64,000 bases of DNA from an uncultured Methanolobus sp. (GTDB lineage Archaea; Halobacteriota; Methanosarcinia; Methanosarcinales; Methanosarcinaceae): assembly GCA_963675495.1 (NCBI GenBank), contig OY776215.1, positions 448,001-512,000 of the forward strand. Reading direction: 5' to 3'. Both the position numbers and the translations under genes were made by a program. This document shows, one piece after another, positions 34,041-63,479 of the stretch. Every line of letters starts with the position of its first letter. The stretch's first letter is position 1. The notes beneath the pieces are model-generated. The model made no database searches. It was given only the letters and a program-made list of their open reading frames with translations, and had not been told where the DNA came from.

Positions 34041-34062
34041 AAAGATTCATCCTGTTAAATTA

Positions 34063-35450: not shown

Positions 35451-35466
35451 TTTATGCGTTATAAAC
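35451..35466. repeat. attL core TTTATGCGTTATAAAC (overlaps the putative aspS TATA box)
   Basis: Identical to 63464-63479; the minus strand reads GTTTATAACG ~65 nt upstream of the aspS ATG. Confidence 0.85.
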
Positions 35467-35544
35467 GTTTCCCAATAACGGTTTAGCCCCAAATGTTTAT
35501 ATAGTCAAAATGTCTCGGCTATATAAAGAAAGGAGACAAAAACC

Positions 35545-37005
35545 ATGCCTAAAGATTTTGAAACACAGATTCAAGAATACATCGATGCTATAAAAAACCC
35601 AGACCAAAAAAAATCGATTATCAAATTTGTGAGATATTGTAAAGACTCAGGTAAATCAACACATAAAGGTAAGCCACAATCCCTAAAAACAGTATATTAT
35701 AAGGTGATGTGTGCAACAGCAATTGGCGCAATATATGACAAACCTTTCAACGAGTTCACAAGGGGAGACCTTGAAGACTACGTGGATTCAGATGAATTCC
35801 GTCTATATAAGAAGGTTGGAAAGGATGGAAAGCGGAAAGAGGTTGCACAATCATCACTACAAGCCTACAAGATGCACTTACGAACCTTCTTCAAGTGGGT
35901 GCACTATGGTCGTGACCGTCAGAAAATGAGAAAGGCAATATATCCTGATGTGGTTGATTGGATTGAAATCCAACTAATTAAAAAGGAAACACGGCCAGAA
36001 GACCTGTTTACCGAAGAAGAGACCTTCAATATGATTAACGGTTGTGACAGGCTCAGAGACCAGCTTTTCATTGCTTTGCTCTATGATACTGGTGGTCGTC
36101 TTGGTGAAATCCTTGATTTGACAGAGGATAGAGTAAAATCAGATTCATATGGGTTCCTTATCCACGTTGATGGAAAAACAGGTATGCGAAATATCAGACT
36201 TTATATGTCAGTTCCATATGTGAAACAGTATCTTCAAACACCTGTTCGTGGTAGACATCTAATCCATACTGTACATGGTAGAATGAGTGATAGCCACGCC
36301 GAAAATATCATCAAAAAAGCTGCAAAAGATGCCGGAATAACACGAGGGGTTTACCCTCATTTGTTCCGTCACACTACGGCAACGAGACTCGCTTCAAAGC
36401 TCACAGAGCCAGAGTTGAAGGCGTTTGCCGGATGGACACCAAGTTCTCAGATGACCGGGCACTACGTCCACATGAACGGTGAGAGAATCGATTCAAGGAT
36501 GAGGGAAATCTATGGAATGAAAGAAGCGGAAGAAGATACTCCATCAATCCTTGCGCCTCAGACTTGTTCACGCTGTCAAGAAATCAACGTAGCTACAAAG
36601 CAGTATTGTAAAAAGTGCGGTTTTAACCTGAAGGATGATATACCATTTGAAAGTGAAGCTGACCTTATGAAGAAGGAATCGGAAAAACAAAATGTCAAGA
36701 TGGAATTGATGCAACGCAACATTGACATGATGCAAAAGAAATTCGAAGAATCGTTGAGGATACGACAATATGAAAGAGATAATGCACCTGTATTGACACC
36801 AGAGCAGCAACGGAAACAAGCTGACGATGTAGCAAGATTACAGGTGCTCTTATCAGGTGAAATTCCACCTCACACACCTTCTAGGGAAGAAATTGAATTT
36901 GATATTGGCACACTAAGGATGTGTCCACAATCATCTGAACGAGACAAAATGTTGCGAGCTTTGCAATCCACGCTGTCATCTCAGGAAGCATCTACAACAG
37001 CGTGA
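35545..37005 (+). CDS. Tyrosine integrase with C-terminal zinc ribbon
   Basis: YDTGGR (R), DGKTG (K), HLFRH, AGW and HYVH (Y); CSRC..CKKCG ribbon. Confidence 0.92.
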   Translation: MPKDFETQIQEYIDAIKNPDQKKSIIKFVRYCKDSGKSTHKGKPQSLKTVYYKVMCATAIGAIYDKPFNEFTRGDLEDYVDSDEFRLYKKVGKDGKRKEVAQSSLQAYKMHLRTFFKWVHYGRDRQKMRKAIYPDVVDWIEIQLIKKETRPEDLFTEEETFNMINGCDRLRDQLFIALLYDTGGRLGEILDLTEDRVKSDSYGFLIHVDGKTGMRNIRLYMSVPYVKQYLQTPVRGRHLIHTVHGRMSDSHAENIIKKAAKDAGITRGVYPHLFRHTTATRLASKLTEPELKAFAGWTPSSQMTGHYVHMNGERIDSRMREIYGMKEAEEDTPSILAPQTCSRCQEINVATKQYCKKCGFNLKDDIPFESEADLMKKESEKQNVKMELMQRNIDMMQKKFEESLRIRQYERDNAPVLTPEQQRKQADDVARLQVLLSGEIPPHTPSREEIEFDIGTLRMCPQSSERDKMLRALQSTLSSQEASTTA

Positions 37006-37308
37006 GTGGGGTTCATCCCTCTCCTTCTTTTTTTTATTACCCTTATCAAATAAATAAACACATTTGACGATGTCTTTTTGGCACCCAACATGCTTCGCAA
37101 ATATCAATCACACGACCACTGAACAGTATAAAGCTACCGGTTTCGTTTCTTTTATTTTTTGATTATTATTTTAACAAAATATACACGTATAGCTTAAAGG
37201 AAACGCAATCAGTCGCCACGGTGCGCTTCACAAACGCTTAAATAGACCTTCGCATATACAGAGGTTTGCAGGAAACAAACTGCAATTATTAATGAAGGAG
37301 TAATAAAT

Positions 37309-37863
37309 ATGACAAAAGTAATAACCCGTGGGATATCATTCCAGCCTGCTGTATTCGATTTGATAGAGCAAAAAAGAGGTCAAAGGTTGAGAAGTAAGTA
37401 TGTAAATGGAATTCTCGAAGAGCATTTTAAATTGCTAGATGAAATGAACATTTTGAGAAAAAGAGTGAAGAATATGAACACGGTAACCGGACATCGGTTT
37501 GTACTAATACCAGCAGCGTATGATGATTTCGGTGAATTAAAATATGTATTGAACGATGCTACGTATCACACGTCAAATGAAGATTTAGATTTTAGTTTCA
37601 GTCTCCGATTGGACGACATGTGGTTTCACATACTCACTGTAAAAGCTATATATCAAGATGAAATTATTCACGAATGTGATTTTTGCTATGATGACTTTTT
37701 GAAAGCAAAATCAAAGTCAAAATCGGAGTTCATCAGTCAGATTGAACACAATTCGGATATGAATATTAAGAGTAAGGAAATAACAAAATGTCTGGATGAT
37801 GCTGTATTGAAGTTCCAAAGAGATGAAGAAATCCATTATCACGAACTGAGAAAAGAAATATGA
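37309..37863 (+). CDS. Hypothetical protein with N-terminal ribbon-helix-helix-like segment
   Basis: TRGISFQPAVFDLIEQKRG..RSKYVNGILEE resembles CopG/RHH; GGAG RBS; lies directly upstream of the Rep-like gene. Confidence 0.5.
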   Translation: MTKVITRGISFQPAVFDLIEQKRGQRLRSKYVNGILEEHFKLLDEMNILRKRVKNMNTVTGHRFVLIPAAYDDFGELKYVLNDATYHTSNEDLDFSFSLRLDDMWFHILTVKAIYQDEIIHECDFCYDDFLKAKSKSKSEFISQIEHNSDMNIKSKEITKCLDDAVLKFQRDEEIHYHELRKEI

Positions 37864-37912
37864 AGTCACCGATTTTTGCCCCCGGTGACTTGCATAAAAA
37901 CATTGTGATAGA

Positions 37913-40561
37913 ATGAATAGTATTAACATAGGTGCATATAAATGTACCGCTGATACAGTACACAGTACTGTTTGCTTTAATAGCACTGAGTTTGATGCTG
38001 ACGTTAATATTGCTCCCAGCAGCAACGACCCACGAAATATCGCAGCATTCAACATTCTAAGCCAAACTCAAAATGCCGTAAATTTATGCCACAAGACAAC
38101 ACGTTGTGGTGGTACTACTTCAACAATAATGGAAATTCTCAATCAGGGTGAAACATTTCTAGCTATCGTACCGACAACAGATATCGGCAAAAAGACCATT
38201 CAAAAAGCAGCAACGGATTTCATCGAGAAGCCACGTGATGCGGTGTACCACGTTCCTCCTAATCGTGAATGCCCGGATATTAAAAGTTTATATAAAAACT
38301 ATCCATATCTAGAAGAATTACCCTTCCTACTTCTGGGCAATTGCAATGAGTGCTTAGAATCCGGTACAAAAAGTCCACAAAATCTGTTGAAGTATATCCG
38401 TTGCCCAATAATGAAGGCTGCAAACTCTGTAGCCTCAAAGACTAGTTATTCCGTAACAATTCAAAAACTAGCAGCGATTCTTCTTTCGAAATACAAAAAA
38501 ATGTCAGCACCGGATGATGGGCGTCCTAAAAAGCTTAATGCAGCTGAGAGGTTTTACTTCCAATTTAATTTTGTGAACACTATTCTCATTGATGAATGCC
38601 ATAAATTCTTAACTGAAAAAACCTCAACAATTGAAGCTGCTATATTTGAAAAAGGCAAATCGTTTCATTTCGATACTGCTCAATATGATTTCCTTTTTTC
38701 ATTTGATAAATACGAAGCTCTCAAAGAAATGGTATTAAATTTCAAGAAAATTTGGAATCAAGAAACTCTTACTGAATCAATAGAAAAAGCTATGGAAGAA
38801 GGTAAGAGTGACATCAAACCGCGTGGAAAGAAGTATTCAAATGTAGTGAAAAACGAATTCATAATTGATGATTCAATAGAATTTGTGTCATCCATATTTG
38901 GGGAAATTGAAGATTTGGTTATTGAATTATCTGACAAAGGCACGATAAAAGATAAAATAAATAGCATCGCCACTTTATATGAGATTTTAAGCTTTACCTT
39001 TGCTGAAAATATACAGGTGACTTACAAATTAGAAAAGATTGCTGTTGACCTCGATAAAGACAAATACCGAGAAAAAATAACAATTATGAATACTGTCATA
39101 GACCCATTGTATAACATGCTTTTAGAAGATTTTGTGCAGGACATGGCTAGTAAGAGGAAACGCATTATCTTTACTTCAGCAACTCCAGCCGGCTGGTATG
39201 ATTACAACCAATGTTGCCCACCAAATCGAGTGATAAATAATATTCTGTTTGGTGAAAATGGAGACCCCCTTAAAACAAATGACATATTCTATATTGTACC
39301 CGACACTCGAAAATTGAGAGGATGGGGAAATGATTCTCTGTATAAAAAGTCGGTGCGAGAAAAATATGCCCAGCGAATAATTCAAATTATAGAGATGTAT
39401 GGGCCTGAAAACTGTCTTATTGTAGCTATGAACAAGAAGATGGCATCCTACATAGAAAAAAATCTCAAAGACATGGGCCATCCATGTTCTGTAGATTACT
39501 ACAATTCTAAAAATATGATTGGCGTTGAATCAGATTCAAGGGTGATGATTGCCCTTGGTCGAGCAGAAAAACCAGGAGATGCATACGACCTATTCACAGA
39601 TTCCGAGATTAAATCCGAAAATAGGAGATTGGAGACAGTACATGCTGACACCTTTCAAGCATGGTCCCGAGTTAAAGACCCAAATGGCAAGGTTCCTTCA
39701 ATCGTGTTCGCACTCGGATGCACTTACAAGCAATGCGTGAATGTATGCAAGTGGGGCTATGGTCGAGAAGTAGAGCACATCAAAACAATTCCTTTCAACA
39801 AAGAGAATGTTACAATCGTTCATCTCCGGGAAAACTGTATTTCAGTACCACAAATAATTAAACCAAAACTCAAAGGTCGTAACATTGATTTCCCTACAAC
39901 TCTTGATTCCATGGCACTTTATAAAAAACCATCCGAAGAATTTTGGTCTTCAGTCTGTATAGATATATATACAGACTCAAGCATCCAATACTTCGAAAAT
40001 ATATATTTAAACACTTGCTCAGATTCTTTCCCAAATATCTTTGCTAAACTTTATGGAACGGATTCTCTTCTTTGTGACATCATGGATGCCGATGTCTCAT
40101 TACTGGAGTCAAAGATACCTATCACAAATGAAGTAATCCGGGACCACATTGAAGGTAGGAAACAAATCCATGGCTACCTGCTTCATTCAGGTATCAAAAC
40201 GAACGCAGTTTGTGTAGAGTTTTCTGATAAACAAAGCCTAATACGTTTCCGAGGATTCCTCGATTTGCTGGAACCAACGATAAAGACTTTGCTAACCGAA
40301 GAAGATGGTTCATACAACGTTTGGTTCTTCTTCAATGAAACAACAGCAAAAGATGCAATTAATTTTGTGAAAGACCTATTGAATTCAGAGGTGCTTGATT
40401 TCAAAAATAAAGATTACAAAATTTATCCAACACAGTCGTGCAAGAATAGCAAGGGAATCGGGGGACCTGTTTTGCTTCCCTTCTTTGATGCATATCAGAA
40501 TGGCAAAATGGATGACATTGAAGTTAATATCTTTCACGTATGCTCAGACAAGCAGGAATGA
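37913..40561 (+). CDS. Putative replication protein: divergent SF2-helicase-like domain plus C-terminal AEP-primase-like domain
   Basis: TTRCGGTT (degenerate Walker A), ILIDECH, FTSATP, QAWSR; C-terminus HIEG..IHGY..VCVEF..NVWFFF..YPTQ..GIGGPVLLP. Confidence 0.55.
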   Translation: MNSINIGAYKCTADTVHSTVCFNSTEFDADVNIAPSSNDPRNIAAFNILSQTQNAVNLCHKTTRCGGTTSTIMEILNQGETFLAIVPTTDIGKKTIQKAATDFIEKPRDAVYHVPPNRECPDIKSLYKNYPYLEELPFLLLGNCNECLESGTKSPQNLLKYIRCPIMKAANSVASKTSYSVTIQKLAAILLSKYKKMSAPDDGRPKKLNAAERFYFQFNFVNTILIDECHKFLTEKTSTIEAAIFEKGKSFHFDTAQYDFLFSFDKYEALKEMVLNFKKIWNQETLTESIEKAMEEGKSDIKPRGKKYSNVVKNEFIIDDSIEFVSSIFGEIEDLVIELSDKGTIKDKINSIATLYEILSFTFAENIQVTYKLEKIAVDLDKDKYREKITIMNTVIDPLYNMLLEDFVQDMASKRKRIIFTSATPAGWYDYNQCCPPNRVINNILFGENGDPLKTNDIFYIVPDTRKLRGWGNDSLYKKSVREKYAQRIIQIIEMYGPENCLIVAMNKKMASYIEKNLKDMGHPCSVDYYNSKNMIGVESDSRVMIALGRAEKPGDAYDLFTDSEIKSENRRLETVHADTFQAWSRVKDPNGKVPSIVFALGCTYKQCVNVCKWGYGREVEHIKTIPFNKENVTIVHLRENCISVPQIIKPKLKGRNIDFPTTLDSMALYKKPSEEFWSSVCIDIYTDSSIQYFENIYLNTCSDSFPNIFAKLYGTDSLLCDIMDADVSLLESKIPITNEVIRDHIEGRKQIHGYLLHSGIKTNAVCVEFSDKQSLIRFRGFLDLLEPTIKTLLTEEDGSYNVWFFFNETTAKDAINFVKDLLNSEVLDFKNKDYKIYPTQSCKNSKGIGGPVLLPFFDAYQNGKMDDIEVNIFHVCSDKQE

Positions 40562-40756
40562 AATAAGTCATGCAATCACCCTCATCCCTTACACGTCTCT
40601 TTGATTTGAGAATTTTTAAGTTAATCTTAATCAATACCTTTTGAGACCTTCTCAGAATAATCAGGGTAAAGTGTGCGGGTTTATCAGATTTAAATTAAAA
40701 GACGCACCTCTTTCCAGGAACAGCATTTGCCATCCTGTACGCAATACCTTCAAAGC

Positions 40757-40960
40757 CTAGTGAAATTTGATGGGCAAACAGTGCCTCTCTATGAGCTTCT
40801 GATTCAACCAATCAAGCTCTTCTGAACTAAGCAAATACTCCTCACCTATGTAGAATAACTTATCTTCCAGCATGTAACCCTTTTTCGCCAATAGGTCGAA
40901 CATCCCAGCATGACGTTTCTGCACAGCATCGCCGTGTTTTTTATAATTCTCCCGAGTCAA
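40757..40960 (-). CDS. Small hypothetical protein (5' end possibly frameshifted)
   Basis: 67-aa ORF; an upstream ATG (40994) would join the frame if an A7 run were A6. Confidence 0.35.
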   Translation of the reverse strand: MTRENYKKHGDAVQKRHAGMFDLLAKKGYMLEDKLFYIGEEYLLSSEELDWLNQKLIERHCLPIKFH

Positions 40961-41602
40961 TCGACCAGCTTCGACGGGCGTTTTTTTGTTTCATAATCCA
41001 CTATTTATTTGCATTGCAAATAAATTTTGCCTATTGATTTTGTCCCCAAAATACCTTCTTCTAAGCATTTGAAATAGTGACACAGGGGTTTGTACAGATT
41101 GATGATTGAAATCACCGTGATGGGTAAAATTCACAAGAATATAGCATGAATATGATGAATCAATTAACCCAAAAAATCCCGTCAACGCCCCTCACAATTC
41201 ATTCAATATCAATGACCTTGTGCCCAAAATCGGCATAGCACTCAACCATCCACAGTCAGTATTATATTCTGAAGTTAGTAACGTATCCATGTTTCAACAT
41301 CTCAGTCATTCCATGAATCAGTAAACACGAACCTCGTGCCAGGAAAGCACATTTTCATTTAATAATTAAATACTGCACATATCCGAGACGCCGTTGGGTA
41401 TTTGTTCACACTCCATTCAATTTCCTAAAATCACCACATCCTTCAACCACGACAGCAGAAGAAGTTTTGCAAATAACCTAAACGCCTATCACTTTTGATT
41501 TCTATCATCCAAGTACCTGAATATCATCGTAAACACTTTTTGCACTTCAAGTCTCAACAGACTGATAAATAGTATCACATCATCCTCAAATACGGTGATT
41601 AA

Positions 41603-42010
41603 ATGACTGAAAAAATTGGAAGAAACGACCCTTGTCCATGTGGTTCTGGTAAGAAGTACAAGAAATGTTGCATGGGTAAAGACAAAGAACAGAAAAAAGA
41701 ATTCCTTGAAAAAGTGGAGAGCATGAACCGGATAAGCATGTCAGCAGGTCTTGCAGGTCGTGATAAAGATATATTCGACTCTAAGGAAGAAATCCTTGAG
41801 TCCATACGTGCTGAAGGGCTTGAACCAGTAACCACTGAAGAAACCTACGATATAGATGATGAACCTGTCACTACTTTGACAGTTGAGTTATACTGCAAGC
41901 ATGGTCATTCTGAAGTAGAAAGAGTCTATGTTCTTCTGGATGATGGCAAGTGGGAGTTAATCGAAGAAGGATATGGTACACCATGTCCTGAATGTGAGAA
42001 TGAAGAGTAA
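41603..42010 (+). CDS. SEC-C motif protein
   Basis: [18 protein letters not shown]; C-terminal CKHGH..CPEC. Confidence 0.8.
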
Positions 42011-42017
42011 TTGGCTA

Positions 42018-42386
42018 TCACAGCAAATGATGAATCAATGATATCAGATAGGATGAATTTTGACTAGATTGCATCTGTTGCCTCATTCCTGTCACACGTG
42101 AGACGTATTCATTATAGTTACTTGCAACAATCTCGAATTCCTTGAAACAAACAGACCTCTCAACAGTAATCTTTGATGAGTTCACATGCGTCCTCGCAAC
42201 GTCTATGACAATATGCTGTCTTTCAACTCTAGCATTGAAGTACTTTGCATCATTCCTGGGTCTGATACCATACATCTGAAAATCATTGCCGGCTGGACTG
42301 AGCTGGTCTAACAATGTACTCCACGACTTTTCAATGTCACTGAAATCTTTTGCTTCGTTCATAGCACATTCCTCCAACGTATACAA
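42018..42386 (-). CDS. Hypothetical protein
   Basis: 122-aa ORF with plausible composition, downstream of and co-oriented with the 685-aa gene. Confidence 0.6.
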   Translation of the reverse strand: MYTLEECAMNEAKDFSDIEKSWSTLLDQLSPAGNDFQMYGIRPRNDAKYFNARVERQHIVIDVARTHVNSSKITVERSVCFKEFEIVASNYNEYVSRVTGMRQQMQSSQNSSYLISLIHHLL

Positions 42387-42440
42387 ATATCACATATATG
42401 CATGTTATTGTGCCACCATAATTACAAACTAATCATCAAT

Positions 42441-44498
42441 TTATTTATCCAATTTATCTGGATTCTTCCTAATATAACCCAAGATTTTCGTCTTCAGCTT
42501 CTCTGGGAACGTAGCAATGTTCACACATTTATCTGAGTATTTTTGAATATCTTCTTCTATCTCTGAATATGCTATCGATTTAATTGGTATTGTAATAACA
42601 TGTTGGGCTCCAGTGCCCATAGCTGATGCACCTACAGTAACCTGAATAGCTTCCTGAATCCCAGGTTTAAGTGAAATTTGTATTTCTTCTATTGATTCCA
42701 AGATTTGGTCCATAGTTACACATATATATCCAGTATCTTTCTTGATTTCATCCAATTTATGATTCACATAAATTGTTGGAATCAAAAGAATTACGGTTCC
42801 TATCATTGCAATTTGGTCTTCAACAATCTTGCATTCACTTATTTCATCAATTTTGTCAATAATTAATTTATTTTCAGCAACATCGGGAACCAATGCACGA
42901 ATAGAGAAAATTAAATTAACAAGATTTTTTTCCAATTGCTTTGGATTTTCAACTTGTAACTTTTGAATTTCTTCCTTTACCTTATTTGCAATAGATTCAA
43001 TAGGAGTGCCTTTTGTCTGTTCAGATATAAACGAAGCTTCATTTCTGATTCTCTGAACAATCGACATGATGCCTTTATCTAAATAATCTTGGAAGAATTC
43101 TTTGTCGATAACGAATTCTCTTATATTGATTGCGTCTTGTTCAGCATAATGTTCTATGACAGCCTCCGCCCTTTGATGCAAACTACCCCCATATCCAGAA
43201 TAATCAGTTGCACAATTAAAGAATACATACCATACAGAGTAATCACTGAGAAAGCCATACCTTTCAATGAGAACTGCATAGCTGTAAGCAAAGCCGTTGG
43301 TATATTTTACAGGATGCTTAATTCTGAGAACTTCGGCCTTTTCCATTGTTTTATGCATTTTCTTAGTCTGAATAGTGCCTAATAATAAAGCAGTAAACGC
43401 ACTAATACCATCTCTTATTACTTGATGGCAATCCAATTTGTAAATCATTTCCCAATAAAAATAAGAATCAAGCTTCCGTACTTTTAGTTCAGGCGTGCTG
43501 TCGTCAAGCAAATACTCAGGAGTGGAAACAGTATCTTTTCTCAATAATGAACCAAATTTGTTTTTATTAAACTTTTCTTTTAACAATAGCATTGCATCAA
43601 CAGTTTTGATATTGAATTCATTCTCCAATGGTTTAACTATCTCTTCATTTATTGATTCAAAAAACCTATCCAAACATTTCCATTTTACTTCTGTAGGTGA
43701 CACACTTATGTCTGAATGTTCCCATTTTATTATTGGCAAGACTTCTTCGATAAAACCACCAAAAAGAGATGGTTCACTTTCCAGCTCATCTATTACTTCT
43801 TGGGTATAGAGTTCTGTAGATTGATGCATTCTTTTTAAACAAGTGGATTCATATTTATCTCTGCCAAGAAGAACATACCAAAGATACTGCAAACAAAATG
43901 CATATCCATTGAAGCTTTCATCAAGCCTTTCTTGAGATATTTCTCTTTCTAGAATTGACATAGGATATGTATATTGAACTCCTCTATCGAGGTCATTAAA
44001 ATGGATATGTGTATCCAAAATAGTTACAATTTTCAAAGATAGATTTTTATCTGGAATCTTGCCAGACACTACATCTTCAAGGAAAATCCTATCAAAGACT
44101 GTGAAAACTTCTTGTGCATTAGCCCAGTAATTGGCAATATCATCCCATGAAGCCTGTTCATTTATATGTTTCAACCTGTTCCATAGGTTTTTTATAAATA
44201 TGGTTTTTTCACTTGTATTAGGGATGTCATCAATATACACACCAACAGAATTTGCTCTGTAGTATGCCATATCGTCATCAAAATCAAAGGTAGAGTCATC
44301 ATGAAAGGCATCAAGTAAATCGCTAATCACAACTTCAGTAAAGAACTTATATCCCTCTATCAAAAAAGAATCATCGTCTATTTGATGATATGATTTTAGC
44401 CATTCCCTATATTCACCTAAATTGGAGATAATTTTCAATATGTTGTAGAATGAGAATACTCTGTCAACTTTGTTAGGCTGAATGTGATTTAAATCCAT
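42441..44498 (-). CDS. Hypothetical 685-aa protein (candidate defence cargo)
   Basis: Long AT-rich ORF with no catalytic motif recognised. Confidence 0.75.
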   Translation of the reverse strand: MDLNHIQPNKVDRVFSFYNILKIISNLGEYREWLKSYHQIDDDSFLIEGYKFFTEVVISDLLDAFHDDSTFDFDDDMAYYRANSVGVYIDDIPNTSEKTIFIKNLWNRLKHINEQASWDDIANYWANAQEVFTVFDRIFLEDVVSGKIPDKNLSLKIVTILDTHIHFNDLDRGVQYTYPMSILEREISQERLDESFNGYAFCLQYLWYVLLGRDKYESTCLKRMHQSTELYTQEVIDELESEPSLFGGFIEEVLPIIKWEHSDISVSPTEVKWKCLDRFFESINEEIVKPLENEFNIKTVDAMLLLKEKFNKNKFGSLLRKDTVSTPEYLLDDSTPELKVRKLDSYFYWEMIYKLDCHQVIRDGISAFTALLLGTIQTKKMHKTMEKAEVLRIKHPVKYTNGFAYSYAVLIERYGFLSDYSVWYVFFNCATDYSGYGGSLHQRAEAVIEHYAEQDAINIREFVIDKEFFQDYLDKGIMSIVQRIRNEASFISEQTKGTPIESIANKVKEEIQKLQVENPKQLEKNLVNLIFSIRALVPDVAENKLIIDKIDEISECKIVEDQIAMIGTVILLIPTIYVNHKLDEIKKDTGYICVTMDQILESIEEIQISLKPGIQEAIQVTVGASAMGTGAQHVITIPIKSIAYSEIEEDIQKYSDKCVNIATFPEKLKTKILGYIRKNPDKLDK

Positions 44499-44717
44499 TA
44501 ATATCTAATTTACTATTAGAAATTTAAATATTTAAATAGTCTTCTAGTTTTTAGCACCCGATACGTATACAACTTTGCTTACGCACAGATTTCATGAATC
44601 TCCTAAATTATGCCATACATCACAGCTTTTTCATCAATAAGTGTCCAATAGTAAACACAAACAATAGCCATGTTCATGACCTAAATGTTTTTAATGTCTG
44701 AAATTCACCTGAGATGC

Positions 44718-44742
44718 AAGTCAACACCTATGGTGTCGACTT
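44718..44742. promoter_or_regulatory. Imperfect inverted repeat (operator or hairpin) before the wHTH gene
   Basis: AAGTCAACACC-TAT-GGTGTCGACTT, 10 of 11 positions match. Confidence 0.45.
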
Positions 44743-44756
44743 AGGGTCGGTGACGC

Positions 44757-46406: not shown

Positions 46407-46416
46407 GTAAAACGAT

Positions 46417-46447
46417 TGAAGTGCAAGCTTGGCGGTTTTGCACTTCA
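46417..46447. terminator. Hairpin between convergent genes
   Basis: TGAAGTGCAA...TTGCACTTCA 10-bp stem. Confidence 0.5.
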
Positions 46448-51385: not shown

Positions 51386-51418
51386 ATGCGTAAAGTGCTT
51401 CAAAAAATTAAACTTCCG

Positions 51419-55100: not shown

Positions 55101-55497
55101 ACCTGGTGAGGTATTGCCAGGAATGAAGAATGACCCTGAGGTAGAACGTATTGCAGTAGAGTTTGCTATGGACTATGAGAGAAAATATGGTTGGACGCCT
55201 GAAAGTGTAGAAGACCAAAACCTTGGATTTGATATAAGGTCTACTAAAGGTGAAGAAGTTAGGTACATTGAAGTTAAAGGAAGAGCTCAGAGAGGGCCAG
55301 TATCACTTACACAGAATGAGCAATTCAAAGCACAAAGATTCAAGGATGATTACTATTTGTATGTTGTCTTGAATACAAAAACACACCCTGAGCTGTATGT
55401 GCATCAAAACCCTGCAGAGACCCTTGAATTCCAGGAAGTGATGGGTGTTGTGAGATACATAGTACCACTGGACCAGATTGTAAGTTCAAAGGTATAA
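52171..55497 (+). CDS. SNF2-family helicase with C-terminal DUF3883 (PD-D/ExK) nuclease domain
   Basis: LIADDPGAGKT, DEAH, LTATP, EGINLQ and QRMGRIHR motifs; C-terminal GFDIRS..IEVKG. Confidence 0.9.
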   Translation: MVSLDELKQGVIIKGSRWSEPVSLDNVNEMNGFVHLKGATVHSKQYINQIIPYSELENINVESLDLVFSEEPWKVFLALEMLRYRFASMYDPLIAMSTSKVNPLPHQIDAVYGRILKLPRIRFLIADDPGAGKTIMAGLIIKELKIRNLVKRILIVVPGHLKDQWRREMKERFEESFMVIDRSAIDALYAENVWSKENQAITSLDFVKQEDIITSLAAAEFDLVIVDEAHKLSAYQYGDKVHKTARYKVGQVLSHQSEHILFLTATPHRGDSDNFRLFLDLLNEGFFATNELLEESIVSKDNPLFIRRIKEDLRDFDGTPLFLPRHVKTSFFNLESDDERGLYNDLSQYVEHQYNRALSRDKKRNVAFALVILQRRFASSIYAVLQSLKRRKKRLKDLLEGANERVTNPRNFDSEDYDEMSEEDRWKEEEIWETLSVAENREELKGEISTIESLINQCQNIIDEEKEVKIKELKKALVELESIYSDKSDQKILIFTESRDTLDYLEEKIKLWGYSSSVIHGGMKLEERILAEKTFKQETQVLIATEAAGEGINLQFCHLMINYDLPWNPNRLEQRMGRIHRYGQRKEVHIINLVAEDTREGKVFAALLQKLEDIKGALGPDKVFDCLGDLMYETNLSQILTEVAANARDVNVVIAEMTQTLDEDYVAGVKESLSESLATRNIDYTQIKELEIKAREQRLIPEYTEHFFRKAIENADGKIMDRKDGMLSMESIPLVIRRISKEDNFRKSYGEMLKAYRKFTFDKNEAFKNPDAEFISLGHPLFEAVMAWVRDNFNDAIRNGAVFVDPDGEMDGYVLFYEGEISDGKGDVAGKRLFSIYNNGTAVRPVSPSFIWDMEYGKAPDHVSIDIDALKDSSNMEIITSLQGYLEELLTERVRQSDIKEKYGINSLYFLIDRLDGELIDLYDRRDNGENVDLPIHNKEERMANYRKARDDLQTLIEKEKSLTMSMPSFLGIIRVVPGEVLPGMKNDPEVERIAVEFAMDYERKYGWTPESVEDQNLGFDIRSTKGEEVRYIEVKGRAQRGPVSLTQNEQFKAQRFKDDYYLYVVLNTKTHPELYVHQNPAETLEFQEVMGVVRYIVPLDQIVSSKV

Positions 55498-55526
55498 ATT
55501 GAAAAATGGATTTATGAGGATTACTA

Positions 55527-58229
55527 ATGGATACAAAAGACCGTCGTCTGATTGAAGATTCATTTCCTGTCAAAGAGGTCAGTGTAGCATCTGCCAAAGA
55601 AAAAAACATACGTCATGGACATATTTCCACCTTGCACATCTGGTGGGCACGACGTCCTCTTGCAGCATCTAGAGCAACTGCTTATGCCGCACTTGTTCCC
55701 CCTCCAGAGAATATTGATGAGTGGGAAAAACAACGTAATTTCATCATTGAACTTTGCAAGTGGGAGAACTCCAATGACATAGGCTTATTGCAAAAGGCTC
55801 GTGAGGATATCCTTAAAGCAAATGGTGGTGTGCCTCCAAAAGTATTGGACCCATTTTCTGGCGGAGGGTCAATTCCCCTAGAAACCTTACGTCTTGGATG
55901 TGAGACATATTTTAATGATTACAATCCTGTTGCAGTACTCCTTGAGAAATGTATCCTAGAATACCCACAAAAATATGGTATACCCAAGGAAACCATAAAT
56001 GGAGTGCTAACTGGAAATCAGAAGAATCCACTACTTGAGGCAGTCAAAAAGTGGGGTGGCTGGATACTCGAGGAAGTAAAAACCGAAATTGGTAGATTTT
56101 ATCCTAATGACTCAGATGGCTCAGTACCAGTAGGATACATATGGGCACGTACTATCCCTTGTCAGAATCCTGCCTGCGGTGTAGATATACCACTTTTTCG
56201 ACAGTACTGGCTGGCCAAAAAGCCTAACAAACAAGTTTCTCTGTATCCTTATGTACAAGATGGAAATGTTTTATTTAAGCTAGTTGGCGATGGTTATGAA
56301 CCTATGCCTGAAAATTTTAACCCAAAAGAAGGCACTGTATCCCGAGCCATTGCAATTTGTCCTGTATGTGGTGCAGCTGTGGAAGCAAAAGATACACGTA
56401 GACTCTTCCAAGAAGGCAAGTCTAGCGCACGCATGATTGCTGTGGTACTTACCAAACCTGGGGAACGAGGTAAAATTTATCGTATATCAACACAAGAAGA
56501 TGTAATAGTATTTCAAGAAGCTGCTAAGTATCTACAGGAGAAGATACAGACATTGAGAAAAGGATTTGATATGGAGCCAGTGCCGGATGAACCTTTACCC
56601 CCTAAAGGAACACTTGGTTTTCGTGTACAAGGATATGGCCTTGATACATGGGGTTCTCTCTTCAACTCTCGCCAACAGCTTGCACTAGTGACTTTCTGTG
56701 AAAAAGTCCGGGCTACACATGAGAATATGTTGCATGATGGTTATGAAGAGAATTTTGCTAAAGGAGTCTCTACATACTTAGGTTTTCTTCTCGATAAATT
56801 AGCTTCTTCTTCTAATACATTGGCAAGGTGGCAATCCAATGGAGAAAAAATTGCCGATGTTTTTGGGAGGCAGATTTTGCCAATGCTATGGGATTATACG
56901 GAAGTAAATTTAATAAATGGTAAATCAAGAAGTTTTAATGAATTAAGTGGAGATGTTTATCGTGTAATTGAGAAATACTCAAGTTTACCTGAAAACTCGG
57001 GCTACAGTATTCATTCCTCTGCTACATCACTCCCCATCCCTGATAATTATTTAGATGCAGTCATTACCGACCCACCTTATTATGATAATGTTCCTTATTC
57101 CCATCTTTCTGATTTTTTTTATGTTTGGCTAAAGCGTAGCGTGGGTGACCTATATCCAGAGCTATTTTCAACCCCACTGACTCCAAAATCCAATGAAATT
57201 GTTGCTTATTCAAATGGACCAGGCGGATTTGAAGAAGGGAAAAGAAAGTTTGAGACAATGCTCGCAGATTCTTTCAAGGAAATGCACCGTATCCTCAAGC
57301 CAAATGGGGTTGCTGTCATTGTATACGCTCATAAATCAACTGAAGGCTGGGAAACCCTAATTAATTCACTTTTAGATTCTGGACTTGTTATTACCGCTGC
57401 TTGGCCAATAAATACTGAAATGCAATCACGGCTAAGAGCAAGAGAATCAGCGGCTCTTGCATCATCCATCTATATTGTAGCCAGAAAGTGGGAGAGGGAA
57501 TCAACTGGTTTCTACAAAGAAGTGAAAGATGAATTGGAAACCCACCTTAATATGAAGCTGGACAAATTATGGAAGGAGGACATCTCTGGTGCGGATTTCT
57601 ATATATCAGCCATCGGCTCTGCTATTGAAGTCTATGGGAAATACTCTCAGGTCATGGACTATGAAGGTAACATTGTGCGTGCAGACAGACTTCTTCAGGA
57701 TGTAGAGGATATAGCTACCGATTATTCTGTGAAGAAAATCCTCAAGAATGGTTTCTCTGGTACAATTTCAGGGCTTACAAGATTCTACGTAATATGGCGA
57801 TGGTACTATGGAAATACCAGCGTGCCTTTTGATGAAGCCCGTAAACTTGCTACATCATGTGGTCTTGACCTTTCGGTTGAATGGAGCAAGAATGATTCAT
57901 TCATCAAAAAACAGAAAGAGAATATAGCAGTCATTGACCCAAAAGGACGTGAAAAGCATATAGATGGCCTGAAGAAGTCATCAGAACTCATAGATGTGTT
58001 ACATGCAGTCTTGCTACTTTGGGAGAACAGTAAACAACAGGAAATATTAGATGTCTTACGTACCAGTGGCTTTGGAAGACATGATGTATTTTTCAGAGTA
58101 GCTCAAGCTATATCGGAAACACTTCCAAACGATGCAAAAGAAAAGAAACTATTGGACGGATTCCTTGCTGGAAGAGGCAGAATAATGGAAAAAATGAGAA
58201 AAGATACAGGACAACAGACTTTATTTTAA
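55527..58229 (+). CDS. DUF1156-containing amino-DNA methyltransferase (probably m6A)
   Basis: LHIWWARRPL, DPFSGGGSIP (motif I), TDPPYY (motif IV) and Cys-rich inserts. Confidence 0.9.
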   Translation: MDTKDRRLIEDSFPVKEVSVASAKEKNIRHGHISTLHIWWARRPLAASRATAYAALVPPPENIDEWEKQRNFIIELCKWENSNDIGLLQKAREDILKANGGVPPKVLDPFSGGGSIPLETLRLGCETYFNDYNPVAVLLEKCILEYPQKYGIPKETINGVLTGNQKNPLLEAVKKWGGWILEEVKTEIGRFYPNDSDGSVPVGYIWARTIPCQNPACGVDIPLFRQYWLAKKPNKQVSLYPYVQDGNVLFKLVGDGYEPMPENFNPKEGTVSRAIAICPVCGAAVEAKDTRRLFQEGKSSARMIAVVLTKPGERGKIYRISTQEDVIVFQEAAKYLQEKIQTLRKGFDMEPVPDEPLPPKGTLGFRVQGYGLDTWGSLFNSRQQLALVTFCEKVRATHENMLHDGYEENFAKGVSTYLGFLLDKLASSSNTLARWQSNGEKIADVFGRQILPMLWDYTEVNLINGKSRSFNELSGDVYRVIEKYSSLPENSGYSIHSSATSLPIPDNYLDAVITDPPYYDNVPYSHLSDFFYVWLKRSVGDLYPELFSTPLTPKSNEIVAYSNGPGGFEEGKRKFETMLADSFKEMHRILKPNGVAVIVYAHKSTEGWETLINSLLDSGLVITAAWPINTEMQSRLRARESAALASSIYIVARKWERESTGFYKEVKDELETHLNMKLDKLWKEDISGADFYISAIGSAIEVYGKYSQVMDYEGNIVRADRLLQDVEDIATDYSVKKILKNGFSGTISGLTRFYVIWRWYYGNTSVPFDEARKLATSCGLDLSVEWSKNDSFIKKQKENIAVIDPKGREKHIDGLKKSSELIDVLHAVLLLWENSKQQEILDVLRTSGFGRHDVFFRVAQAISETLPNDAKEKKLLDGFLAGRGRIMEKMRKDTGQQTLF

Positions 58230-58240
58230 AGAGGGAAAAC

Positions 58241-60814
58241 ATGAGAGCGTTTCATACAATAGCAGTTCCGCATAAGGATATTCTGGAAGGAAGACTTTCA
58301 CTTGATACCTTTGCAGCGGATTTGTGGGAAGTCTATCAAAATAGGGGAATAGATGAATACAGAGATGCAGATACTTTCTTTAAGAAAACCTATCTCACTC
58401 AAGGTCTGCAAAATCTCATTGATATTGTTGAGAAACGTCTGCAAGGGAAAGGCAGTGACCCTGTCATTCAGATACAAACTCCCTTTGGTGGGGGCAAAAC
58501 CCATGCTCTCATAGCCCTCTATCACAGTGCAAAGAGGTGGGGTGCAAATGTAGTGGTCATTGATGGTACAGCTCTTTCTGCAGAGACTACCTTCTGGGCA
58601 TTGATGGAGGAACAGCTTACAGGAAAGGTCAGTGCATTCTCACAAAATACATCTCCCGGTAAGGATAAAATAAGGGCGTTTCTGGAACATCAGCAACCTG
58701 TGCTCTTACTTATGGATGAAGTACTGGAATATACCACTAAAGCGGCAGGAATGAAGGTAGGAGATAGTAACCTTGCCTCCCAGACAATCGCTTTCATGCA
58801 AGAGCTCACTGAAGTCGCAAGTACATTACCTCAAGTATGCTTAGTAGCCACATTACCTTCCAGTATAATTGAGCACTATGACAATGCTGCTGAGGACCTA
58901 TATCAGAAGTTGCAGAAGGTCTCTGGTAGGAAAGAGATTATTTACACACCCGTTGAAGATAATGAGATAACTAAAATCATACGTCGCAGGCTTTTCAGTA
59001 ACATCGATGAACAGGCTGCAAAAGATATAGTTGACCAATTCGTGAGCTTTGCTGAAGAGCATAGCATTTTGCCTGCCGGGGTACAGCCCAGTCAATATCG
59101 TGAGAAGTTCATGGAATCTTATCCATTCCTTCCTGATGTAGTTGATACCCTTTATCATAGGTGGGGTAGTTTCCCTACTTTCCAGCGAACCCGTGGAGTA
59201 CTCAGGCTTCTTTCATTGGTGATTTATTCCATGAAAGAGACCACTTCACCATACCTTACGTTAGCAGACTTCGAACTTGGAAATCAGGAGATTCGCCAAG
59301 AGCTTATCAAACATATAGGTCAACAATACAATGGTATTATCAGTCAGGACATAACCAACTATGCGTCTGGAGCAGTAAAGGTAAACAAAACCCTTGGAAA
59401 TGCTTTCATGGGTCTTTGTCTCGGAGAAAGAGCAGCAAAAGCAATCTTTTTATTTTCATTTTCAGGTGCAGGTGGGAGAGGTAGTACCCTAACTGAGATT
59501 AAAAGAAACTCAACTACTCTTGACAATCCTCCAAGTGTCATTGCAGAAGCTTTGGAGCAGTTCAAAAGACAACTCCTTTATTTGCATGAAAGGAATGATA
59601 TGTATTTCTTCAGCACAGAAATCACCCTAAATAAGTTGCTTCTCATCAGCATGGAGAATGTAAAAGAGGATAAAATCCAAGAAAGGGAAAGTCTTCTGTT
59701 ACAGTCCAGTCTTGACCGAGGAAAGCTTGAAGTATATCTGTGGAATGAAGGTTCGGGGATACCTGATACTGATTCTTTGAAGTTGATAATTCTTGATTCA
59801 AGTTCAGCTTATAAGAAAAAAGATATTCTAAGTAAGCGTGGACAAACACAGCGCATATACAAGAATACACTATTTTTCTTGATTCCTATGGATTCAGAGT
59901 ATCCTGCAGTTTCCAAGGACATCAGAGAAAATATAGCACTAAATAATATTGAATCAGACCCTACATTGAAATTATCTACAGAGCAGAAGAGGGAGATTAA
60001 GGATAAATTAAAAGTATCTAATGATAACCTCAAAACCTCTATCAGAAAGCTCTATCGCCTTCTGTATGTCCCCTCAAAGGGTGGTGAACTTACCGAAATA
60101 GACCTTGGTATTCCTCTTTATGGAAGCGTTTCCAAACTCAACGAAGAAGTGTATGATACTCTTCGGAAGAAGAATGAAATATTGGAAAACATAACTCCGA
60201 TATTGATAAGGGAGAAATACCTGTCTAAAAATGATTATGCATTAACAGAGCAGATATACTATTCAGCATACAGGACACCGGGAGAAGCAAGACCAATTAA
60301 TAGGTCGGTTCTTGAAAAAGGTATTTCTGATGGTGTCCAAAAAGGTCTTTTCGGACTTGGTGCCATTGATGAAAATGACTTGCCTCTCTGCGCTTATTTC
60401 AAGGAACCTGCTTCTATTTCATTGTCTGGTAAAGAAGTTATCATAAAAGATAGTATTTGTACTGAACAAAAGGGAAAGAATGAAAGCGAGGACGCTCCTA
60501 CTCCTGATAGTGGTAAAGGAGGACAGAGTACAATCACCCCACCAGTTTCTCCCGTTGATACAACGGATGATGGTGGCGAAGGACCTGAGCCTCCAATGCA
60601 TGCAGTTACCAAAAAGAAAACTGTTCAATTGACTTTGAATCTGTCCAAAGGCCAGTCATCTACATTGAGCCACGTATTGAGATATCTTAGTGACAAGTTC
60701 CAAGATGTTACAATAGAGATAAAAGCTAAAGATGGTGAGATAACAGAAAGCGATTATGAGAATAAAATCAAAGAGGCATTCGAGCAAAGCAGTATCGATT
60801 ATGCAGAATCTTGA
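58241..60814 (+). CDS. DUF499 AAA+ ATPase
   Basis: AVPHKDI, FAADL, QTPFGGGKTH, LLMDE and FQRTRGVLRLL motifs. Confidence 0.9.
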   Translation: MRAFHTIAVPHKDILEGRLSLDTFAADLWEVYQNRGIDEYRDADTFFKKTYLTQGLQNLIDIVEKRLQGKGSDPVIQIQTPFGGGKTHALIALYHSAKRWGANVVVIDGTALSAETTFWALMEEQLTGKVSAFSQNTSPGKDKIRAFLEHQQPVLLLMDEVLEYTTKAAGMKVGDSNLASQTIAFMQELTEVASTLPQVCLVATLPSSIIEHYDNAAEDLYQKLQKVSGRKEIIYTPVEDNEITKIIRRRLFSNIDEQAAKDIVDQFVSFAEEHSILPAGVQPSQYREKFMESYPFLPDVVDTLYHRWGSFPTFQRTRGVLRLLSLVIYSMKETTSPYLTLADFELGNQEIRQELIKHIGQQYNGIISQDITNYASGAVKVNKTLGNAFMGLCLGERAAKAIFLFSFSGAGGRGSTLTEIKRNSTTLDNPPSVIAEALEQFKRQLLYLHERNDMYFFSTEITLNKLLLISMENVKEDKIQERESLLLQSSLDRGKLEVYLWNEGSGIPDTDSLKLIILDSSSAYKKKDILSKRGQTQRIYKNTLFFLIPMDSEYPAVSKDIRENIALNNIESDPTLKLSTEQKREIKDKLKVSNDNLKTSIRKLYRLLYVPSKGGELTEIDLGIPLYGSVSKLNEEVYDTLRKKNEILENITPILIREKYLSKNDYALTEQIYYSAYRTPGEARPINRSVLEKGISDGVQKGLFGLGAIDENDLPLCAYFKEPASISLSGKEVIIKDSICTEQKGKNESEDAPTPDSGKGGQSTITPPVSPVDTTDDGGEGPEPPMHAVTKKKTVQLTLNLSKGQSSTLSHVLRYLSDKFQDVTIEIKAKDGEITESDYENKIKEAFEQSSIDYAES

Positions 60815-61844: not shown

Positions 61845-61848
61845 CATT

Positions 61849-62529
61849 TTATGAAATGAGTCCTAGTTCATGCAATTTCCCATATATCTCAATGTAACCT
61901 TCTACATCTGGGTATATCCAGAGAGCTTTGTCTAACTCACGAAAGGAAACATCTAATTCGTTTTTCAGATTGTAGCATATATCAAAATAAGTATTCCAAT
62001 CATAGTTATCAGTTACTTTATATCCGTATTTCTGCAATGTCTTAACTGCCCGGACATCTATTATAGGACAGTTTTGTTGACTAAAGAAAAACGCAATCGT
62101 AGACGCAATAGGAAACGAAATACCGTTGTAATCAGTTAATTGTGTGACCACATCTTTATTCTTCAATGGATTATTTGATAGTTGCTTTATCAGGGCATAT
62201 AATTCATATTTTCTGTCAAGTGTCCCGTACTCAGTATCTTGGAAATATCGCTTTATTCTTAATGCGCCCTTCCATCGCAGAATACTGTTTTCATCATCTA
62301 CTATGAGATGGAACAACTGGTCGGCACTATCAATGGATTTTACCTTATCCAAAATGCACTTCTCACGAGAGTTTTCCTCTGGATTCATATAATCATAGAA
62401 CTGAGCAAGTGCGACAACTTGTTTTCGTGATAAATTTAAGCTATTGGGTATATTCATATGAATGAAATTCTTTGATGAATATATACGGCTTTTCATTTTA
62501 TCCTGAGACTTCAGCTTAAGTACTTGCAA
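61849..62529 (-). CDS. Hypothetical protein with helix-hairpin-helix (DNA-glycosylase-fold)-like C-terminus
   Basis: LTDYNGISFPIAST..PIIDVRA..RELDKALW pattern. Confidence 0.5.
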   Translation of the reverse strand: MQVLKLKSQDKMKSRIYSSKNFIHMNIPNSLNLSRKQVVALAQFYDYMNPEENSREKCILDKVKSIDSADQLFHLIVDDENSILRWKGALRIKRYFQDTEYGTLDRKYELYALIKQLSNNPLKNKDVVTQLTDYNGISFPIASTIAFFFSQQNCPIIDVRAVKTLQKYGYKVTDNYDWNTYFDICYNLKNELDVSFRELDKALWIYPDVEGYIEIYGKLHELGLIS

Positions 62530-63174
62530 ATGTCAGTATACCCTTGCTCCCGAAGCTTGCAATCGCTTCTTTTATCGCATGAACCACATTTCCCCTGTAA
62601 AGATACAGCCGGGGCACTGGACCTGATTCGAGTATACTGTTTCCTTTTCTCCCTCGTTGATTTCCTCATGCGATGCTTGTAGTTATCTGCGAATATCGGA
62701 TTTGATGATTCCATGAATAGTGATTTGACTTGTGGATATAAGCTGATGAGCCAAGTAGAGTGAAAGTGATGTTCATTCCATCTGATGGATACTCATTTCA
62801 AGCACTGAAAACACTGCCAAATTCATCTCGAGAGGGGATATAATGACCATTGACGATACATTACACCTGAGTGACAATACAAGCTCTTAGAAACGAAATA
62901 TAAAGCACCACTTCGTTACTTTGTTTGTTAAATCCTCACTGGTATCACCTGTTGACAGTATCGAATGCTGTGGATGGTGAAGACAGGGTTTACATGTGTT
63001 GACAGTACGTACATAGTCATATCAAGTCAACATGCGCTGAATGTATCATCATAGGTTTGCGTGGTTCGCATGTGCGGATAGTGTGAACGATGTTGTTAGC
63101 ATGCTTTTAGATGATGAAGAGAGTGAGCATGACTATGAAAATAGATTTAAAATATGTTTCAAATCGATACATGG

Positions 63175-63318
63175 CTATACTATCGGCTTAAGGGCAAGGT
63201 AGCCTTGGACTTTGATTATCTCAAACATTTGTCCTTTCTTGTATCCCTCTAATTCCATGATATTTTTTGGCATTGTCAGTCTGTATTGACCGTTGAATTC
63301 CTGTAATGTAACTTTCAT
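63175..63318 (-). CDS. 47-aa AbrB/MazE/SpoVT-type DNA-binding protein (not in ORF track)
   Basis: MKVTLQEFNGQYRLTMPKNIMELEGYKKGQMFEIIKVQGYLALKPIV*; GQ..T.PK..G.K.G pattern; AAGGTG RBS. Confidence 0.7.
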   Translation of the reverse strand: MKVTLQEFNGQYRLTMPKNIMELEGYKKGQMFEIIKVQGYLALKPIV

Positions 63319-63339
63319 GATTTACACCTTTTAATATTA

Positions 63340-63369
63340 AGTACTAATATTAGTACTAAATTAAGTACT
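63340..63369. promoter_or_regulatory. Operator-like array: three AGTACT at 12-bp spacing
   Basis: AGTACT at 63340, 63352 and 63364; AGTACTAATATTAGTACT is a perfect 18-bp palindrome. Confidence 0.55.
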
Positions 63370-63463
63370 ATAAATACATTTTATAGAATGTAAATCTTTC
63401 CAAAAACTAAAAATAGGGTTAAAATCAATTAGGAAACAGTGACTAAACCCTTTTTTACAATCG

Positions 63464-63479
63464 TTTATGCGTTATAAAC
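63464..63479. repeat. attR core TTTATGCGTTATAAAC
   Basis: Identical to 35451-35466; 53 bp from the gatD stop codon. Confidence 0.85.

Follow-up and report, generated by a model that had tools for sequence, protein, structure and literature searches.

The attachment (att) sites of archaeal integrative elements lie mostly in tRNA genes, with intergenic and intragenic sites documented as well (PMC8371274, in excerpt). The same excerpts describe two cases that bear on what follows: the psiM100 prophage of Methanothermobacter wolfeii, which occupies an AT-rich intergenic site and leaves the transcription of adjacent genes unaffected, and the pTN3-like elements of Thermococcales, in which the rebuilt tRNA gene is driven from the integrase promoter. 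Among thaumarchaeal elements, 15 of 68 lie in intergenic regions and the median att length is 17 bp (PMC6563490, in excerpt). The locus that we compare with these systems is found in a stretch of 64,000 nucleotides, here called the window (positions 448001-512000 of G000, the one-contig, 2,874,008-bp genome of a Methanolobus-type archaeon). Within it, positions 35451-63479 are very probably a site-specifically integrated, plasmid-like mobile element that was inserted by its own integrase into the spacer between gatD and aspS.

With respect to its integrase, this element resembles the classical archaeal integrases of SNJ2 and PYG1 as the excerpts of PMC8371274 portray them: the gene is whole after integration, the att site lies outside it, the direct repeats are short and the catalytic residues are present. 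It differs from that type in its intergenic target and in a longer protein (486 amino acids, aa) that carries a zinc ribbon and a tail. With psiM100 and the thaumarchaeal elements it has in common an AT-rich intergenic att site (PMC8371274 and PMC6563490, both in part); psiM100, however, is a tailed virus, whereas the present element has no recognisable virion genes and its core overlaps a putative aspS promoter. The likeness to the pTN3-like elements would lie in a host gene that is expressed from element-supplied sequence, as in the hybrid aspS promoter proposed below, but pTN3 has a suicidal SSV-type integrase and uses the 5' half of a tRNA gene (PMC8371274, in part), while here the integrase is unsplit and the target is the spacer before a protein-coding gene. 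Finally, among solved structures archaeal XerA (4a8e) comes closest to the catalytic domain (8e-09), and its site, like that of the element, has inverted half-sites about a short centre. XerA, however, resolves chromosome dimers at dif and has ~290 aa, whereas our integrase scores 87 bits against the NCBIfam XerA cut-off of 220 and stands at the end of a mobile element.

Since intergenic targets are already known for archaeal integrases, the element belongs to a known kind. The original prediction, made from the DNA letters alone, had set the locus against tRNA genes as the usual target; the target is indeed intergenic, but a non-tRNA target is not unusual for archaea (PMC8371274 and PMC6563490, in part). 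We see in this element a fairly ordinary example of the classical integrative plasmid-like elements with defence cargo, perhaps one of a new small family. Among the papers listed by a literature search on integrases and integration in Methanolobus, none seems, by its listing, to describe such an element.

Boundaries and integration site

The element is enclosed by two identical copies of the 16-mer TTTATGCGTTATAAAC, spaced 28,013 bp from start to start, and by two host genes:

35451-35466, no strand assigned: attL core, left copy of the 16-bp direct repeat (sequence, mismatch search)
63464-63479, no strand assigned: attR core, right copy of the 16-bp direct repeat (sequence, mismatch search)
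34063-35394, minus strand: aspS, the left-flank host gene, encoding a non-discriminating aspartate-tRNA ligase (Pfam tRNA-synt_2, 2.3e-94; NCBIfam aspS_nondisc, 2.2e-192)
63533-64000, minus strand: 3' end of gatD, the right-flank host gene, which runs off the window (NCBIfam gatD_arch, 1.8e-60)

The repeat had been singled out in the original prediction, and it stands up to the sequence, to shuffling and to a search of the whole genome. With up to 2 mismatches allowed, the window contains 2 matches where 0.08 are expected, and none of 100 shuffles reaches 2; across all 2,874,008 bp, these two are the only exact copies and a tolerance of 1 mismatch adds none. The left core is separated from the aspS start codon by 56 nt.

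The relatives provide the empty site. A search of 41 genomes (our own included) with the gatD 3' end and spacer gave matches in 31, and the loci considered here are the best 20 of these, again with our own included. In the closest relative, G001 (91% identical over the query), gatD and aspS are 126 nt apart and the spacer holds a single exact copy of the 16-mer. When the element is removed by script from our sequence, the 125-nt spacer that results aligns to that of G001 almost base for base. Thus the check that had been proposed for the predicted gatD-aspS target, adjacency of the two genes and a single 16-mer in relatives, comes out favourably on both counts in G001. Direct repeats at both ends together with one copy at a relative's empty site are what a classical integrative element leaves behind. 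The clean empty site of G001 suggests either a recent gain in our genome or a precise loss in G001. The repeat is short, and one might ask whether its two copies are a coincidence within ordinary chromosome; with so few matches expected, its uniqueness in 2.87 Mb, an empty site in G001 that ends exactly at the repeat and a sister element with the same end architecture (see below), we give this idea practically no credence. The element is real and precisely delimited.

Its G+C content is 0.379, compared with 0.405 for the genome, and it is single-copy in the genome with the exception of the DUF1699 paralogues. No tRNA or Rfam family was found within it. A tRNA-Val gene is located at 30159-30235, ~5 kb to the left of the element, and is unused as a target.

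The integrase and the structure of attP

The left end of the element carries the integrase gene, and both ends carry arms that become adjacent when the ends are joined:

35545-37005, plus strand: tyrosine integrase of 486 aa, with a C-terminal CxxC...CxxC zinc ribbon and tail (PF00589, 8e-15; XerA structure 4a8e, 8e-09)
35461-35486, no strand assigned: element-side arm at attL, with the inner site ATAAACG at 35461-35467, a 12-nt spacer and the outer site GGTTTAG at 35480-35486 (sequence, dyad statistics)
63443-63468, no strand assigned: element-side arm at attR, with the outer site CTAAACC at 63443-63449, a 12-nt spacer and the inner site CGTTTAT at 63462-63468 (sequence, dyad statistics)
35494-35536, plus strand: probable integrase promoter and ribosome-binding region, with TATA-like boxes and AGGAGA (sequence; arm similarity z 8-10)

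The integrase matches PF00589 at 55.5 bits, against a cut-off of 27.1, and its open reading frame (ORF) begins 79 bp past the core, in good agreement with the ~80 bp that had been estimated. The zinc ribbon and a tail of ~120 aa come after the catalytic domain. In an alignment of this protein with its three close relatives, R185, K211, H272, R275, W297 and Y307 are invariant, and from their motifs we assign these six to tyrosine-recombinase catalysis. With the core ending at 35466 and an ORF free of interruptions, the att site lies outside the gene; the integrase is therefore of the classical, non-suicidal type and not of the SSV type, in which attP lies inside the gene and the gene is split. 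The integrase of pNOB8 is of the same classical type.

Relatives of the integrase are scarce. Among 5.8 billion proteins there are three, at 59%, 55% and 50% identity, and the remainder do not exceed ~40%; the names attached to the relatives place the group in Methanolobus. None was found in the genome contigs searched, and a search of metagenome contigs with the integrase produced two loci only, at 25% identity. Among 201 genomes drawn from the order, nothing is closer than an integrase in G045 (42% identical), which is not beside aspS.

When the ends of the element are joined, a 57-bp dyad appears whose axis is the middle G of GCGTT; a scripted count finds complementarity at 21 of 30 positions. 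This score is reached by none of 2000 shuffles and by none of 2000 random 96-nt windows of the genome, and the in-silico attB has 14 of 30. The extended palindrome had been counted by hand as 21 of 28, which is the same figure, two centre-adjacent positions being unpaired. Read off the sequence, attP has the form CTAAACC-N12-CGTTTAT-GCGTT-ATAAACG-N12-GGTTTAG. TAAAC is common to its four sites, of which two inner ones flank the crossover region and two are outer. The outer site, at the equal spacing of 12 nt, is kept in the remnants in the relatives G016 and G012 that are discussed below (read by eye), and the region at 35494-35536, which may function as the integrase promoter, has been retained in both the sister element and the G016 remnant.

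This arrangement suggests how integration could proceed. The circular form would carry the 57-bp attP with its four related sites, which we infer to be bound by four integrase protomers. The integrase would then pair the inner part of attP with the shorter attB of the gatD-aspS spacer, and strand exchange inside the 16-bp identity would yield attL and attR and leave both host genes whole.

A sister element with another core

A second element, in the genome G023 of another species of the genus, has an integrase 50% identical to ours and shares six further proteins with our element, in the same order at both ends. The genes needed for the comparison are the following:

44757-45614, plus strand: 285-aa backbone protein, common to the sister element (43% identity; homology)
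46609-47019, minus strand: DUF1699 protein, common to the sister element (85% identity), with paralogues in the host genome (PF08004, 4.7e-57)
47283-47876, plus strand: small tyrosine recombinase of 197 aa, catalytic domain only (PF00589, 1.9e-27)
47873-48364, plus strand: 163-aa backbone ORF, common to the sister element (33% identity; homology)
50739-51385, plus strand: second small tyrosine recombinase, a pseudogene (tblastn with the sister's intact 215-aa homologue, 87% and 82% identity in two frames)
61849-63318, minus strand: right-end ORFs of 226 aa, 67 aa (62511-62714) and 47 aa (63175-63318) (homology)

Downstream of the G023 integrase there are homologues of the 285-aa ORF, the DUF1699 protein, the 163-aa ORF and the small recombinase (this last at 89% identity), and ~35 kb further on, those of the 67-aa (64%) and 47-aa (87%) right-end ORFs. 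The G023 element is bounded by the 12-mer ATATTAATAAAA, with one copy ~95 nt ahead of its integrase and the other 35,840 bp further downstream, where it follows the 47-aa homologue by ~150 nt; its end geometry is that of the element in the window, and its arms resemble ours (z 9-10). Our own genome has one copy of the sister's 12-mer, at position 929798, an unoccupied landing site in an intergenic position ~60 nt before the start of the next gene. It lies between a 434-aa ORF, which looks like a glutamate dehydrogenase, and a Dus/FMN-type gene. The left flank differs: G023 lacks most of the dehydrogenase-like ORF beside its element.

The middle of the sister is of another make. A DUF927 protein stands in place of our helicase/primase protein, and the cargo consists of S-layer, NosD/PKD, PEGA and HEPN proteins. 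Since the sister shares the backbone and differs in core, replication gene and cargo, the two elements appear, from their gene content, to be members of a small family that combines a common backbone with exchangeable replication and cargo modules and differing intergenic cores. The earlier suggestion that the family may be an undescribed one stays plausible, with three integrase relatives at 50-59%, among them the integrase of the one sister.

The 197-aa recombinase stays below the cut-offs of the NCBIfam XerA and tyrosine-type DNA invertase models in all its matches. The pseudogene is interrupted by an in-frame stop around codon 17, and its reading frame shifts in the His-x-x-Arg region.

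The gatD-aspS spacer in relatives

In 12 of the 19 relatives' loci, the site is empty and aspS starts 108-211 nt after gatD. Outside G001, the exact 16-mer is found in no relative's locus, and distant species have 1-3 substitutions in its left half. In the other seven, aspS stands apart from gatD: by 1.2 kb in G010, 2.1 kb in G024, 3.3 kb in G019, 4.2 kb in G006, 6.7 kb in G012 and 8.0 kb in G016. The seventh, G009, has its full gatD on another contig than aspS and a 125-nt gatD 3' fragment (77% identical) 2.3 kb from aspS, which suggests that the site has been rearranged. The aspS match of G012 is split between two frames (residues 1-310 and 306-443); in a genome that is 67% complete, this may reflect a frameshift or an assembly error.

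None of the seven inserts has an integrase match at E<=1e-10, and their ORFs encode S-layer proteins, a serpin, VWA, peptidase-like and SatD proteins. The clearest case is that of G016, where core-like copies with 1 and 3 mismatches lie 7.9 kb apart between gatD and aspS and both arms resemble those of the element (the right 71% over 237 nt, the left 79% over 258 nt, with z 8 for the left). For G012 and G006, the likeness is to the G016 arm (z 4-6) and more weakly to the element itself (z ~3). G019, G024, G009 and G010 share one post-core sequence among themselves (z 9-16), but their likeness to the element's arm is weak or absent (z -0.6 to 3.7, with G019 at 3.7). By eye, all seven inserts could be taken for remnants of the element, which proved too strong: the shuffle-based scores are strongly supportive for G016, weakly so for G012, G006 and G019, and unsupportive for G024, G009 and G010. 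We consider the G016 remnant clear and those in G012 and G006 probable. In a tree of gatD only, a clade of 6 species contains empty sites only, and the inserts fall in at least 3 branches of the other clade, of 14 species, amid empty sites. This single-gene tree is compatible with several separate integrations and also with a single old one that was later lost precisely in places.

At the gatD-aspS site, G016 and, less clearly, G012 and G006 have inserts that keep element-like arms but no integrase. They show that elements of this kind decay where they stand, and could be taken as a sign that our element is likewise a fixed island that is no longer mobile: one that integrated once, whose repeat and integrase survive, and which is kept for its defence genes. 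One of its two small recombinase genes is already broken, which fits such decay and weighs against continued mobility, and no excised form was seen among assembled contigs over 34001-54000, a stretch too short to show one. Nevertheless, the 16-bp repeats are still identical, the integrase is full length with all of its catalytic residues, and the nearest relative has a clean empty site. We consider a fixed island unlikely and, on the state of its repeats and integrase, the element is probably able to move even now.

Replication gene and other contents of the element

The remaining genes outside the defence cargo are these:

37309-37863, plus strand: 184-aa ORF, no family match (Pfam, PHROGs, NCBIfam)
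37913-40561, plus strand: 882-aa protein, helicase-like (DExH type) in its N-terminal region and carrying an AEP primase domain at the C-terminus (PF22548 AEP-TOTE, 5.7e-11; weak ResIII; DECH motif)
41603-42010, plus strand: 135-aa SEC-C-motif protein (PF02810, 1.4e-10)
42018-42386, minus strand: 122-aa ORF, no family match (Pfam, PHROGs, NCBIfam)
42441-44498, minus strand: 685-aa protein of an uncharacterised two-domain archaeal family (homologue search)

The 882-aa helicase/AEP-primase is probably, judging from its domains, the replication protein of the free form. Its AEP-TOTE match is above the cut-off, and its nearest Atlas clusters are AEP-TOTE primases and helicase+primase proteins. It has only 2 homologues in the set of 5.8 billion proteins and no match among plasmid records. 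Some points tell against this assignment and against our reading of the element: the ResIII helicase match, at 18.7, is below the Pfam cut-off of 22.5; the AEP-TOTE family is named after a conflict system, so that a defence role for the protein is possible instead; and neither a replication origin nor an excision factor was identified in the element.

About half of the element's ORFs are without a family, and many proteins of archaeal viruses have no detectable relatives. The element might then be the provirus of an unrecognised archaeal virus, with its structural proteins among the family-less ORFs (those of 184, 685, 285 and 226 aa, and others). We searched 23 proteins (ORFs of at least 80 aa, E<=0.01) against Pfam and 16 against PHROGs. 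As had been expected from the first inspection, which recognised no capsid or VirB4 gene, the element proteins have no capsid, terminase, portal, tail or VirB4-type match in Pfam, PHROGs or NCBIfam and no packaging-ATPase match in the first two; unfamiliar archaeal capsids could escape these libraries. Likewise, the Pfam scan found no VirB4/TraG-type ATPase or mating-pore gene, of which divergent archaeal forms could escape. The integrase family is not found in the viral contig collection either, and the sister carries other genes in the same region (DUF927, S-layer, PEGA, HEPN).

The 685-aa protein does not behave like a capsid protein. It is matched in 22 of 121 genomes of the taxonomic family, and the 42 relatives among the matches listed, from Methanosarcinales and Geoglobus, have no Pfam family. 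Its C-terminal part (~472-680, ~200 aa) is modular, recurring in proteins of 469-1158 aa. Its structure model (pLDDT 79.5, a good model) matches no viral or other known fold: Foldseek gave nothing at E<=0.001, the best VIA-align Z of 8.1 was to helical bundles only, a common result, and the ESM Atlas gave no usable hit. All this makes a provirus highly improbable. In its N-terminal part, the protein has invariant D76, R81 and K103, an H395-P396 pair and a D-x-S-G motif.

Predicted defence cargo

The element carries two sets of predicted defence genes:

48843-50572, plus strand: HEC-01-like pair, an ABC-type ATPase (48843-49949) and its partner (49919-50572) (PADLOC HEC-01A, 3.9e-40, and HEC-01B, 4e-05; AAA_21, 1.5e-24)
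52102-60814, plus strand: Hma system, comprising the hmaA helicase (52102-55497), the hmaB DUF1156 methylase (55527-58229) and the hmaC DUF499 ATPase (58241-60814) (PADLOC, 6.4e-201, 1.2e-132 and 9.3e-118; Pfam)

The Hma system is complete, with hmaA, hmaB and hmaC contiguous on one strand. An HEC-01 candidate system pairs an ABC-type ATPase with a TOPRIM-domain partner; the partner of the HEC-01-like ATPase here matches HEC-01B only at 4e-05, and does slightly better on the partner models of other candidate systems. The locus resembles the association of Hma with HEC-01 described in 10.1101/2024.01.29.577857 (in part), in that the three hma genes match and the ABC-type ATPase and its partner match the HEC-01 models; in contrast to that case, where HEC-01 is embedded between the hma genes, the HEC-01-like pair here lies upstream of hmaA and is parted from it by the broken recombinase and a 171-aa ORF. 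In the available part of the same source, HEC-01 gave no protection against the phages tested. Such genes agree with the plasmid-like defence island that had first been envisaged, and both sets, judged by their families, could be cargo able to benefit the host. The genome also has a second, distant Hma-like locus, at ~205,000-216,000, with hmaA, hmaB and hmaC matches at 24-34% identity.

A putative aspS promoter and the choice of target

When the 12 empty sites are compared, conservation within the spacer is highest in a 15-nt block, TTATAAACCTAATTA, at least 13 of whose 15 positions are identical in each (counted by eye). The right half of the core makes up the first 8 nt of this block. Read along the aspS strand, the block is TAATTAGGTTTATAA, which we take to have the form of an archaeal pair of BRE (the transcription factor B recognition element) and TATA box. 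The TTTATAA within it lies ~66-72 nt before the aspS start codon, and it may well be the aspS TATA box. Since aspS is single-copy (one tblastn match in the genome at E<=1e-5) and divergent from the integrase gene, its promoter in this strain must lie in the 150 nt between the two start codons. In a Methanolobus species, BRE/TATA elements are 19-22 nt from start sites and the median 5' untranslated region is 55 nt (PMC5378194, in part); the TTTATAA box would give aspS a 5' untranslated region of ~45 nt, a geometry that fits. After integration, the duplicated core would keep TTTATAA before aspS, and the arm of the element would supply GGAAAC upstream.

It is conceivable that the integrase clade as a whole homes to archaeal promoter cores. 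In such a scheme, the attP inner half-site ATAAAC would fall on a housekeeping TATA box that selection preserves, the arm would rebuild the BRE and thereby keep an essential gene active, and the spacer would be a long-lived landing pad in the genus where elements arrive, lose their integrase and leave cargo behind (S-layer, serpin, defence). The sister's core is likewise ~60 nt before a start codon, AT-rich and TATA-like, as this scheme would have it. We put it forward with considerable reserve and think it rather doubtful. As to the aspS promoter itself, a rough count across the genome, of TATA-like words ahead of 670 ORFs, shows no positional peak and is uninformative; the supplementary text of PMC5378194, so far as searched, has no match for aspS; and species differ in how far the conserved block lies from the aspS start (spacers of 108-211 nt).

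The missing positional peak can also be read in favour of a simpler account, in which the target is an AT-rich spacer that matches attP by chance and the conserved block is some other signal, such as a regulator site or the end of the gatD transcript. The block does contain a direct repeat of AATTAGGT with a spacing of 21 nt, which could be a regulator site. Yet a promoter for aspS itself has to lie within 150 nt in this strain, and the 1.2-8 kb that separate the two genes in seven relatives mean that aspS is not dependent on read-through from gatD; moreover, TTTATAA is on the aspS strand at a distance compatible with Methanolobus promoter geometry. We regard this account as a serious contender that nonetheless falls somewhat short of being probable.

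A 14-mer inside the element, GGAAACGTTTATAA at 47265-47278 (plus strand), repeats in inverted form the sequence at 35459-35472 (the attL junction, minus strand) and occurs nowhere else in the genome. It stands 5 nt before the ORF of the small recombinase. As a candidate second att site it was rejected, since the repetition extends to the right half of the core and 6 nt more, with nothing of the left half. In the sister element, the corresponding position is taken by a TATA-like AACATTTATAAC that does not vary in step with that element's core, and for this reason we read the 14-mer as a promoter likeness instead. If it is a promoter, the small recombinase may start with the ATG at 47301, on a leaderless transcript.

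The surroundings of the element

Outside the element, the window contains a 2056-aa S-layer protein (12452-18622) with seven S-layer domain stretches and a 520-aa multi-haem cytochrome (28336-29898), both among PAS/histidine-kinase genes. The G+C content is low (~0.35) at 7-16 kb and 21-28 kb of the window. Assembled contigs of four runs were compared with 34001-54000, a stretch that takes in one end of the element. Run X1 is near-identical and may be the source assembly, and at 35451-35466 neither a joint nor a loose end is listed. In run X4, a second sample of the same organism, the region 34001-54000 is covered by short contigs in 30 of 30 bins, with a summed depth of ~700-9400 over the element compared with ~300-350 over aspS. 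This hints that X4 is RNA-like and that the element's genes are expressed, the depth being unreliable for ranking genes.

Implications

Mobile elements of methylotrophic methanogens whose ends are mapped to the exact base are, to our knowledge, few. Here, an Hma system and a HEC-01-like pair are seen travelling on an archaeal integrative element. Furthermore, attL and attR, the deduced attP and attB, an empty site and a sister with a different core could together seed an integration tool for Methanolobus and related genera. If the promoter reading is true, the locus would offer an example, open to testing, of an integrase that makes use of an essential gene's promoter and afterwards restores it, and it would explain how the spacer before a protein gene can, like the tRNA genes, be a stable anchor for islands.

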